From positions 32,001 to 96,000 of the forward strand of contig CM000429.1 in assembly GCA_000165345.1 (NCBI GenBank): a stretch of 64,000 bases of DNA. The letters run 5' to 3'. A program made the translations under genes and the position numbers. The notes under the pieces were generated by a model. It made no database searches. It worked only from the letters and a program-made list of their open reading frames with translations, and was not told the DNA's origin. Positions 16,693 to 17,062 of this stretch are shown piece by piece (position 1 is the first letter of the stretch; the number at the start of each line of letters is the position of its first letter).

Positions 16693-17062
16693 ATAGTTGT
16701 GGTTTACCTGCATGCAATTAATTACGTGTAAAAAAATAGTAATTATCGCACCGGTGTATGTAATTTTGAAAATCAAAAATACTTGTGGATTACCGGTATG
16801 CAATTACGTAAAAAAAACTGGTTTGTAAAATAACGGTATATGTAATTTAGAACCAAAAAAATATTTATTATGTGGATTACCGGCATGCAATTAGTTAAGC
16901 ATAAAGCAAAACTCAATATTGCACCGGTGCATGCAATTGGAAAATCAAAAATATTTATGTGGATTACCGGCATGTAATTAATAGTGTACAGTAAAAGCTA
17001 TTAGTACACTGGAATTATTAATTACCAAAAATAAACATGCAGTATTCCGGCATGTTGTTATG
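16693..17062. repeat. Degenerate tandem array of about 85-bp units with about eight half-sites, each carrying an ACCGG-YATG-YAATT / TGCATGCA-like (AP2-type) motif. It is a candidate regulatory element.
   Basis: Copies of gtggattaccggtatgcaattacg, gtggattaccggcatgcaattagtt, gcaccggtgcatgcaattggaaaatcaaaaat, gcaccggtgtatgtaattttgaaaatcaaaaat, gtggattaccggcatgtaattaat, acctgcatgcaattaattacg and attccggcatgttgttatg lie at 16709, 16751, 16786, 16843, 16874, 16921, 16960 and 17044. The array is about 600 bp upstream of the CDS at 17637. Confidence 0.7.

Follow-up and report, generated by a model that had tools for sequence, protein, structure and literature searches.

A conserved cluster of ACCGG-containing motifs, tandemly repeated in part of Cryptosporidium, upstream of cgd1_170: a candidate binding-site array

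The stretch of C. parvum chromosome 1 analysed here, 64,000 nucleotides long and called the window below, contains a large intergenic gap directly upstream of a gene for a 285-aa protein (Table 1). Relatives of this protein were found only in Cryptosporidium, with 96% identity to cmbei_100170 of C. meleagridis. The identical protein has its gene on an 881 kb chromosome, some 55 kb away from the end, and its ortholog cgd1_170 finds no mention in the searchable literature. The G+C content of the window ranges from 20 to 42% per kb, with its minimum at 14–18 kb; that of its intergenic regions other than this gap is 19.7–34%. The gap itself far exceeds the mean intergenic distance of 504 bp reported for C. 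parvum (PMC7840661). It has a counterpart of 1.7–4.9 kb in the six other species with both flanking genes called, and in C. felis no gene is called within 6 kb upstream of the ortholog.

Within this gap lies a tandem array, 577–951 bp 5' of the start codon for the 285-aa protein and some 54 kb from the chromosome end, beside a family of secreted-protein paralogs: the large ORFs at 838, 7482 and 10940, upstream of the gap, are paralogs of each other. A second gap of similar size is found 10 kb away. We considered the gaps as decayed copies of the three neighbouring secreted-protein genes and rejected the idea, as tblastn gave no match below E = 0.3.

Table 1. Coordinates of the array, the related motif composites and neighbouring features, counted from the first nucleotide of the window.
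Feature	Position	Strand	Description
Gap holding the array	13742–17636		3.9 kb, 20.2% G+C; no called gene, no ORF longer than 66 aa
Tandem array	16686–17060	+	4 units of 80–87 bp and a partial fifth
Unit U1	16698–16783
Unit U2	16784–16870
Unit U3	16871–16957
Unit U4	16958–17037
Unit U5	17038–17060
Best copy of A element	16871–16911	+	AGTTAAGCAT replaces the TACGTG part
Best B half-site	16913–16953	+	GCACCGGTGCATGCAATTGGAAAATCAAAAAT; holds the unit's second CCGG, ~43 bp after the first
Downstream gene	17637–18494	+	285 aa, no Pfam domain, ortholog of cgd1_170
ORF left of convergent gap	46115–47824	+
Single composite (48.7 kb)	48707–48763	+	TACCGGTA at 48709, TGCATGCA at 48732, ATGTGGA at 48757
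E2F-type site	49117		TTGGCGG, in convergent gap
ORF right of convergent gap	49290–51800	−	836-aa Noc2, 100% identical to C. parvum CPHLJ_1g360
M14 carboxypeptidase, ATG	54260	−
Single composite (54.7 kb)	54683–54765	+	ATGTGGA at 54683, TACCGGTA at 54716, TGCATGCA at 54758
Three short ORFs	61432–62158		look like a proteasome beta subunit
Double TGCATGCA	62201–62220

The array is real: the motif strings quoted for it in the earlier note were recovered in place, and the count of about eight half-sites given there was right. Five are A half-sites (TGTGGATTACCGGCATGCAATTA and variants), spaced 86, 87, 87 and 80 bp apart, and three are clear B half-sites (GCACCGGTGCATGCAATTGGAAAATCAAAAAT and variants), next to a degenerate fourth. 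The number of 85-bp units, put at "about 2.5" in the same note, had to be raised to about 4.3. The array escaped Tandem Repeats Finder, as the similarity among its units is only 60–80%; a separate repeat search did recover it. In C. parvum as well as in C. meleagridis, a two-unit periodicity of 173 bp is also present.

Four motifs make up the array, [A/C]CGGYA, WTGTGGA, CATGYAA and TACGTG, at a density far above background and in DNA that is non-coding. In the window, ACCGGYRYATGYAATT with one mismatch allowed has 4 matches against 0.02 expected from shuffles, TACCGGYA occurs 8 times (0.33 by shuffling) and TGCATGCA 9 times (0.62 by shuffling; a 15-fold over-representation, mostly intergenic), with the proviso that counts within tandem arrays are not independent events.

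We compared the orthologous loci of a second C. parvum assembly and of eight other species: C. meleagridis, chipmunk genotype I, C. ubiquitum, C. canis, C. felis, C. ryanae, C. xiaoi and C. muris. The motifs are clustered at the corresponding place in eight species, C. parvum included; of those compared, only C. muris lacks the cluster. It takes tandem form in five of them: next to C. parvum, these are C. meleagridis (period of about 86 bp), chipmunk genotype I (five 88-bp units), C. ubiquitum (about 83 bp, irregular) and C. canis (five 96-bp units). No direct repeat was found upstream of the ortholog in C. felis, C. ryanae or C. xiaoi, where the densest CGGYA cluster of the locus is placed at −823 to −243. 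In C. muris the CGGYA cluster is absent; the upstream intergenic DNA is just 128 bp long there and the large gap is missing.

The cluster has kept its position. In all eight species, the densest 300 bp of CGGYA sites in the 11–13 kb of each locus lies upstream of the ortholog's ATG, with corrected P values from 1e-3 to 4e-13. Companion motifs gather at these sites: over the nine species, WTGTGGA, CATGYAA and TACGTG occur 13, 15 and 13 times in the CGGYA clusters against 0.65, 1.5 and 0.5 expected from the remainder of the loci. In C. xiaoi, examples with companion motifs are ATCGGTAAATCATGTGGAAT, CGCCGGTAGCAATACTGCATGAAATTACGTGG and TTCCGGTATATAG...TTGTGGACAAGCATGTAAAATAATACACGTA.

These motifs are kept in DNA that has otherwise diverged, as beyond chipmunk genotype I the surroundings can no longer be aligned. 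Between C. parvum and C. ubiquitum, the flank aligns only at one 31 bp half-site and at the ATG-proximal 263 bp; between C. parvum and C. canis, the intergenic flank of the array does not align. The consensus of the unit over the five tandem species reads TGTGGA-WY-ACCGG-Y-ATG-Y-AAT(T)-AAYTACGTGTAAAA, then about 15 bp, then A-Y-ACCGG. Its divergence is uneven: comparing the C. parvum and C. canis consensus, 29 of 37 positions of the A element are identical (78%), as opposed to 23 of 50 (46%) in the rest of the unit. Across species, the invariant core is (A/C)CGGYA followed by ATGYAA. The commonest form of the site is ACCGGYA, not AACGG, with variants reading TAACGGTAT in C. parvum U2, C. meleagridis and C. 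xiaoi, and AAACGGTA in C. ryanae.

The array also changes within C. parvum. The window has 4.3 units, as does the C. parvum locus L001, and a second assembly (L002) has 5.3, so that the two assemblies differ by one whole unit, as well as by a 5 bp indel; such differences explain why short-read contigs break inside the array. Units of C. canis and of chipmunk genotype I are 90–95% identical within the species, well above the between-species values, which indicates concerted evolution of the array with some of its positions kept constant. Together with the retention of motifs at the orthologous position over eight species with diverged flanks, the non-repeated clusters carrying the same motifs point to a cis-regulatory module with binding-site turnover that was amplified later, unlike a neutral satellite. 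At the level of its motifs, the array is non-random and under purifying selection.

Two single composites of the same motifs occur elsewhere in the window. Outside the array, TACCGGTA is found only at these two places, TGCATGCA at seven sites and ATGTGGA at three, and in both composites no more than 50 bp separate TACCGGTA from a TGCATGCA and from an ATGTGGA. None of 200,000 random placements produced two such composites, even when restricted to intergenic DNA. Extended similarity is another matter: nhmmer with the array gave E = 0.11–1.1 for the 54.7 kb site and E > 3 for the 48.7 kb site, and blastn found nothing above the AT-rich background elsewhere in the window. Neither site is therefore a copy derived by descent from a repeat, and we rejected a dispersed repeat or mobile-element family. 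Of the family suggested in the earlier note, common descent has to be given up, whereas the shared motif composite is real and conserved. Chipmunk genotype I, C. ubiquitum and C. canis keep both composites at the orthologous positions. The motifs of the composites follow the same cyclic order as in the array with different spacings, and all three sites point the same way along the chromosome; with respect to the nearest gene, ATGTGGA runs one way at the array and the other way at the 54.7 kb site.

The 54.7 kb composite is placed 423–505 bp upstream of the ATG of an M14 carboxypeptidase gene and at the same time about 115 bp past the Coq4 stop, just beyond the second Coq4 exon. Most other promoters of the window have an E2F motif 150–350 bp from the ATG; none was found upstream of the M14 gene or of cgd1_170. 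The 48.7 kb composite indeed sits between two convergent ORFs, as noticed before, one of them encoding Noc2. No other part of this 1.47 kb gap is as well conserved, and none still aligns with C. canis; in C. ubiquitum, the composite is 527 bp from the Noc2 stop, as in C. parvum. C. ubiquitum and chipmunk genotype I have a gap of the same size here, 575 bp of the C. parvum gap align as one block with C. ubiquitum at 68%, and the E2F-type site of the gap is invariant in four species. Preserved in size, in part of its sequence and in this motif, the convergent gap may contain an unannotated transcription unit. The position at the 3' ends of two genes, which the earlier note held against a promoter role, stands, but the objection is weakened. 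The double TGCATGCA described further downstream is real as well and lies some 45 bp beyond a run of three short ORFs.

Which proteins might read these motifs? The AP2_1 motif, BGCATGCAH or TGCATGCA, is bound by the ApiAP2 domains of cgd2_3490, cgd1_3520, cgd8_3230 and cgd5_4250 (PMC3734150, PMC4117751), and four C. parvum AP2 domains bind TGCAT(GCA) (PMC4117751). A catalogue of 25 motifs over-represented upstream of C. parvum genes includes BGCATGCAH, ACATGY, WATTGCA and YTTACAT, and contains nothing with CCGG, ATGTGGA or TACGTG (PMC3734150). The four listed motifs overlap the ATGYAAT part of the half-site. The array resembles AP2_1 clusters in that its half-sites hold GCATGCA or ACATGY-type cores and in that both composites carry an exact TGCATGCA; the difference is that this exact palindrome is not the conserved part of the array. 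Full TGCATGCA is present in 2 of the 8 C. parvum half-sites, together with one GCATGCA, and the sites do not each hold an exact or near-exact [T/C]GCATGC[A/G]. TGCATGCA is absent from the arrays of chipmunk genotype I, C. ubiquitum and C. canis, which carry CCGGTATGTAAT or GGCATGCAAT and keep CCGGYATGYAA. An AP2 landing pad, as initially suggested, is consequently at best half of the story: a conserved cis-regulatory cluster of that kind is there, but its conserved core is ACCGG and not TGCATGCA. Literature searches returned no description of the array, of an ACCGG motif or of a relevant minisatellite.

On balance, we favour the view that the array is a cluster of transcription-factor binding sites, a distal module of cgd1_170 that was amplified in the intestinal clade and whose motifs recur at conserved non-coding sites. 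In each unit of about 87 bp, short motifs come in a constant combination: WTGTGGA abuts (A/C)CGGYA, itself fused to an ATGYAA(T) that overlaps the known AP2-type GCATGCA/ACATGY family, and there follow TTACGTGTAAAA and, some 43 bp or four helical turns on, a second ACCGG. The ancestral state was presumably an ordinary, non-repetitive site cluster, which C. xiaoi, C. ryanae and C. felis would have retained. One unit would then have been amplified by unequal exchange on the branch from which C. parvum, C. meleagridis, chipmunk genotype I, C. ubiquitum and C. canis descend; the resulting array would now evolve in concert, its copy number still changing within C. parvum, with selection preserving only the motif positions. 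Conservation is what argues for a function of the array; from the sequence, we infer protein binding, cgd1_170 as the target gene and a stage at which the array acts. The putative binders are a TGCAT-binding ApiAP2 protein and another factor, for which the TAACGG variants make a Myb-like protein conceivable.

Several observations go against this reading. The distance of the array from the ATG is greater than is typical of Cryptosporidium promoter motifs, one composite lies between convergent genes, and C. muris lacks the element. Furthermore, ATGTGGA is oriented differently at the array and at 54.7 kb, and the ATAC-seq peaks of sporozoites were reported to be without AP2 motifs (bioRxiv 10.1101/2025.01.17.633476).

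As at least two further conserved non-coding sites of the window carry this motif set, it has the look of a regulatory code that can be reused. In a bolder and decidedly tentative extension, ATGTGGA, (A/C)CGGYA and CATGYAA/TGCATGCA, optionally with TACGTG, could constitute a previously unrecognised, E2F-independent regulatory code of Cryptosporidium, kept since before the lineages of C. parvum and C. xiaoi split. Its reader would be a putative ACCGG-binding factor, perhaps Myb-like, acting with a TGCAT-binding ApiAP2 protein, and the code would activate a limited group of genes and non-coding transcripts, probably specific to a stage. If so, the cgd1_170 array may be the strongest natural landing site of this factor and a ready-made bait for it.

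We weighed five other explanations against a binding-site cluster. Structured small RNA genes, or a repeated short coding sequence, have next to no chance of accounting for the array. The unit length would suit a small RNA, a period of 87 bp (29 codons) keeps the reading frame and a 66-aa ORF on the minus strand shows a repeated peptide. However, Rfam gave no match at gathering thresholds in the whole window, nor at E ≤ 1 in both large gaps, and no tRNAs were found. The RNA folding z-score is about −2.2 on both strands, a mild excess of the kind expected from the palindromes ACCGGT and TGCATGCA. In RNAalifold consensus structures, units from five species had no compensatory change in any of 6 pairs and no covariation, and the 48.7 kb block from four species likewise showed no covariation, with a consensus energy of −1.4 kcal/mol; the structured ncRNA family proposed in the earlier note thus fails, the covariance analysis included. 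The coding variant was rejected too, because a reading frame does not survive periods of 80–96 bp or the 5 bp indel between isolates, and C. parvum has no ORF in common with chipmunk genotype I or C. canis. A functionless minisatellite (VNTR), its similarity maintained by nothing but concerted evolution, is very improbable and appears largely refuted already. It would account for the unit number differing between two C. parvum assemblies, for the homogeneous units of C. canis and chipmunk genotype I and for the short-read contigs that break in the array, but not for the motif set at the same place in three species with no repeat, the uneven divergence within the unit or the co-occurrence of the same motifs at two other conserved sites.

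A role in organising the chromosome, raised in the earlier note as an origin or boundary element, has been considered in two forms. One is a boundary, insulator or transcription roadblock, at which an abundant general regulatory factor, Reb1- or Myb-like, would exclude nucleosomes and stop read-through between tightly packed genes instead of activating a single one. We think this unlikely, even though polycistronic read-through has been reported in C. parvum, the composites stand just past the 3' ends of genes (after the Coq4 stop and in the convergent gap) and the core TTACCGG is similar to TTACCCG, the Reb1 site of yeast. The common chromosomal orientation of the array and both composites fits it as well, but three of three in one direction has a chance probability of 0.25; the feature conserved in the array is its distance from one particular ATG, and with only three sites in 64 kb holding about 30 genes it is not a general gene-boundary device. 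The other form, a small centromere or replication origin, seems highly unlikely. In its favour, literature searches yielded no description of Cryptosporidium centromeres or origins, the array occupies an unusually large, gene-free and AT-rich gap and its two-unit period is close to a nucleosome repeat. Against it, the G+C content of the gap (20%) is ordinary for intergenic DNA of the window, whereas a Plasmodium-type centromere would be 2–4 kb of gene-free DNA with a G+C content well under that of the remaining intergenic regions. In addition, a gap of similar size is 10 kb off, the motif composite recurs twice within 38 kb, the position tracks the ATG of one gene and C. muris has no such gap. 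Finally, there is a small chance that the array is the promoter or a part of an unannotated non-coding transcript, or that the motif composite is a linear protein-binding motif in RNA, the large conserved gaps holding lncRNA genes. Two gaps far longer than the mean and kept in other species, the aligned block of the convergent gap with its invariant E2F-type site and the 33 intergenic lncRNAs known in C. parvum speak for it; the lack of conserved secondary structure, covariation and Rfam matches, along with the flanking gene ids being unmentioned in the text of the published lncRNA supplement, speaks against it. This explanation overlaps the one we prefer, as a promoter is also a cluster of binding sites.

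A binding-site cluster of this form has partial parallels in other organisms. Upstream of SAG1 in Toxoplasma gondii, six 27-bp tandem repeats serve as promoter elements; like them, the array consists of upstream direct repeats with a short core motif in an apicomplexan that lacks classical TATA promoters. Its units are three times longer, composite (four motifs) and further from the ATG, and the evidence for them comes from sequence. SPE2 arrays in Plasmodium falciparum subtelomeres, bound by PfSIP2, are similar as arrays of AP2-type sites near a chromosome end, and the Cryptosporidium B half-sites contain GGTGCA. However, this GGTGCA is conserved only in C. parvum and C. meleagridis, the array sequences have no bipartite (T/G)GTGC(A/G)-N4-(T/G)GTGC(A/G) unit, and the array is tied to a single conserved gene instead of a variant gene family. 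As in the homotypic and heterotypic binding-site clusters of animal and yeast enhancers, with their turnover of sites, the motif set, approximate position and clustering are retained while order, spacing and flanks change; in contrast to them, the Cryptosporidium module became a regular, concertedly evolving tandem repeat in one clade.

The Myb recognition element is YAACGG. Variant sites of the array reading TAACGG resemble it, which we take as a lead only, given that the commonest array site is ACCGGYA and not AACGG. The C. parvum annotation lists as many as 16 proteins with Myb domains.

Cryptosporidium is a leading cause of childhood diarrhoea, and its gene regulation is poorly understood: in the published motif catalogue E2F, G-box and TGCATGCA dominate, and most transcription factors have no known site. 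With five tandem and three non-repeated species, the array is among the clearest phylogenetic footprints to be hoped for in this genome. While it overturns no current concept, it gives unusually clean access to a candidate binding specificity, ACCGGYA, that the catalogue does not contain, in an organism with little-known cis-regulation. In practice, it is a concrete reagent for DNA pull-down, one-hybrid and reporter assays, and it lends itself to a simple genome-wide prediction.

Outside Cryptosporidium, TGTGGAWYACCGGYATGYAAT had two matches in JGI metagenome contigs, of 40% and 64% G+C, which belong to unrelated organisms and represent chance level. Within C. parvum, the variation in copy number of the array makes it a possible typing marker.

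The region around the tandem array upstream of the cgd1_170 ortholog looks locally hypervariable in C. parvum, as judged by comparing two assemblies: window positions 13001-18600 are only 97-98.5% identical to the corresponding locus of the second one (GCA_048859185.1), unlike the Noc2 proteins of the two assemblies, which are identical. Within this stretch, the array of the second assembly has one additional 88 bp unit, and a 5 bp indel also separates the two. C. parvum isolates could be typed by this region.

Alternate units of the array are more alike than adjacent ones, both in C. 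parvum (16698-16951) and in C. meleagridis (positions 5162-5428 of its locus, L005), giving a two-unit period of 173 bp, approximately that of a nucleosome repeat. A-tracts are spaced roughly 43 bp apart, which may give the array DNA an intrinsic bend.

The C. muris ortholog of cgd1_170 encodes 233 amino acids (39% identity) and lies downstream of a WD40 gene, separated from it by just 128 bp; its upstream neighbours differ (an ABC transporter and a bromodomain protein). Neither the large gap nor the motif cluster is present at this locus in C. muris, the one gastric species examined.

Features discussed in the text, in window coordinates unless a locus is named
Feature	Position	Strand	Size
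Large ORF 1	838-3729	+	963 aa
Large ORF 2	7482-10469	+	995 aa
Large ORF 3	10940-13741	+	933 aa
Convergent gap, RRM-domain gene to Noc2	47825-49289		1.47 kb
Coq4, two ORFs (region 54878-55862)	55395-55862 and 54878-55309	-	
Double TGCATGCA (ACATGCATGCAT x 1.9)	62198-62220		
C. muris cgd1_170 ortholog locus	L015 3594-5702		

The three large upstream ORFs are mutually paralogous, with the highest similarity at the C-terminal end, where 110 aa align at 38% identity, and the gaps between and after them are unusually large (3.75 kb and 3.9 kb). ORFs 2 and 3, the two scanned of the three, gave no Pfam match; by eye, the N-terminus of ORF 3 resembles a signal peptide.

The convergent gap that holds the 48.7 kb composite motif is of similar size in C. 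ubiquitum and chipmunk genotype I (1.56-1.6 kb). A 575 bp block of it (48302-48877) aligns to C. ubiquitum at 68% identity, and an E2F-type site, TTGGCGG at 49117-49123 (opposite strand TGCCGCCAAA), is unchanged in four species. Gap size, aligned block and invariant site together suggest a transcript missing from the annotation, which would be a lincRNA or run antisense to Noc2.

The double TGCATGCA lies in a short convergent gap, about 45 bp past the last exon-like ORF of a putative proteasome beta-type gene (61432-62158) and before a 68-aa ORF (62302-62508, minus strand). It is not another copy of the composite, since it has neither a CCGG nor an ATGTGGA companion.

The splitting of Coq4 into two ORFs implies an intron; its orthologs in C. 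canis and chipmunk genotype I are single called products of 304-305 aa. Just past the Coq4 stop, the ATGTGGA of the 54.7 kb element (54683-54700) is one arm of a short inverted repeat that reads GTGGA-GTG-TCCAC in the direction of the gene and could be a dimeric binding site. In ortholog alignments, chipmunk genotype I keeps this repeat, and C. ubiquitum keeps it with both arms changed (AGTGGC...GCCCACT).
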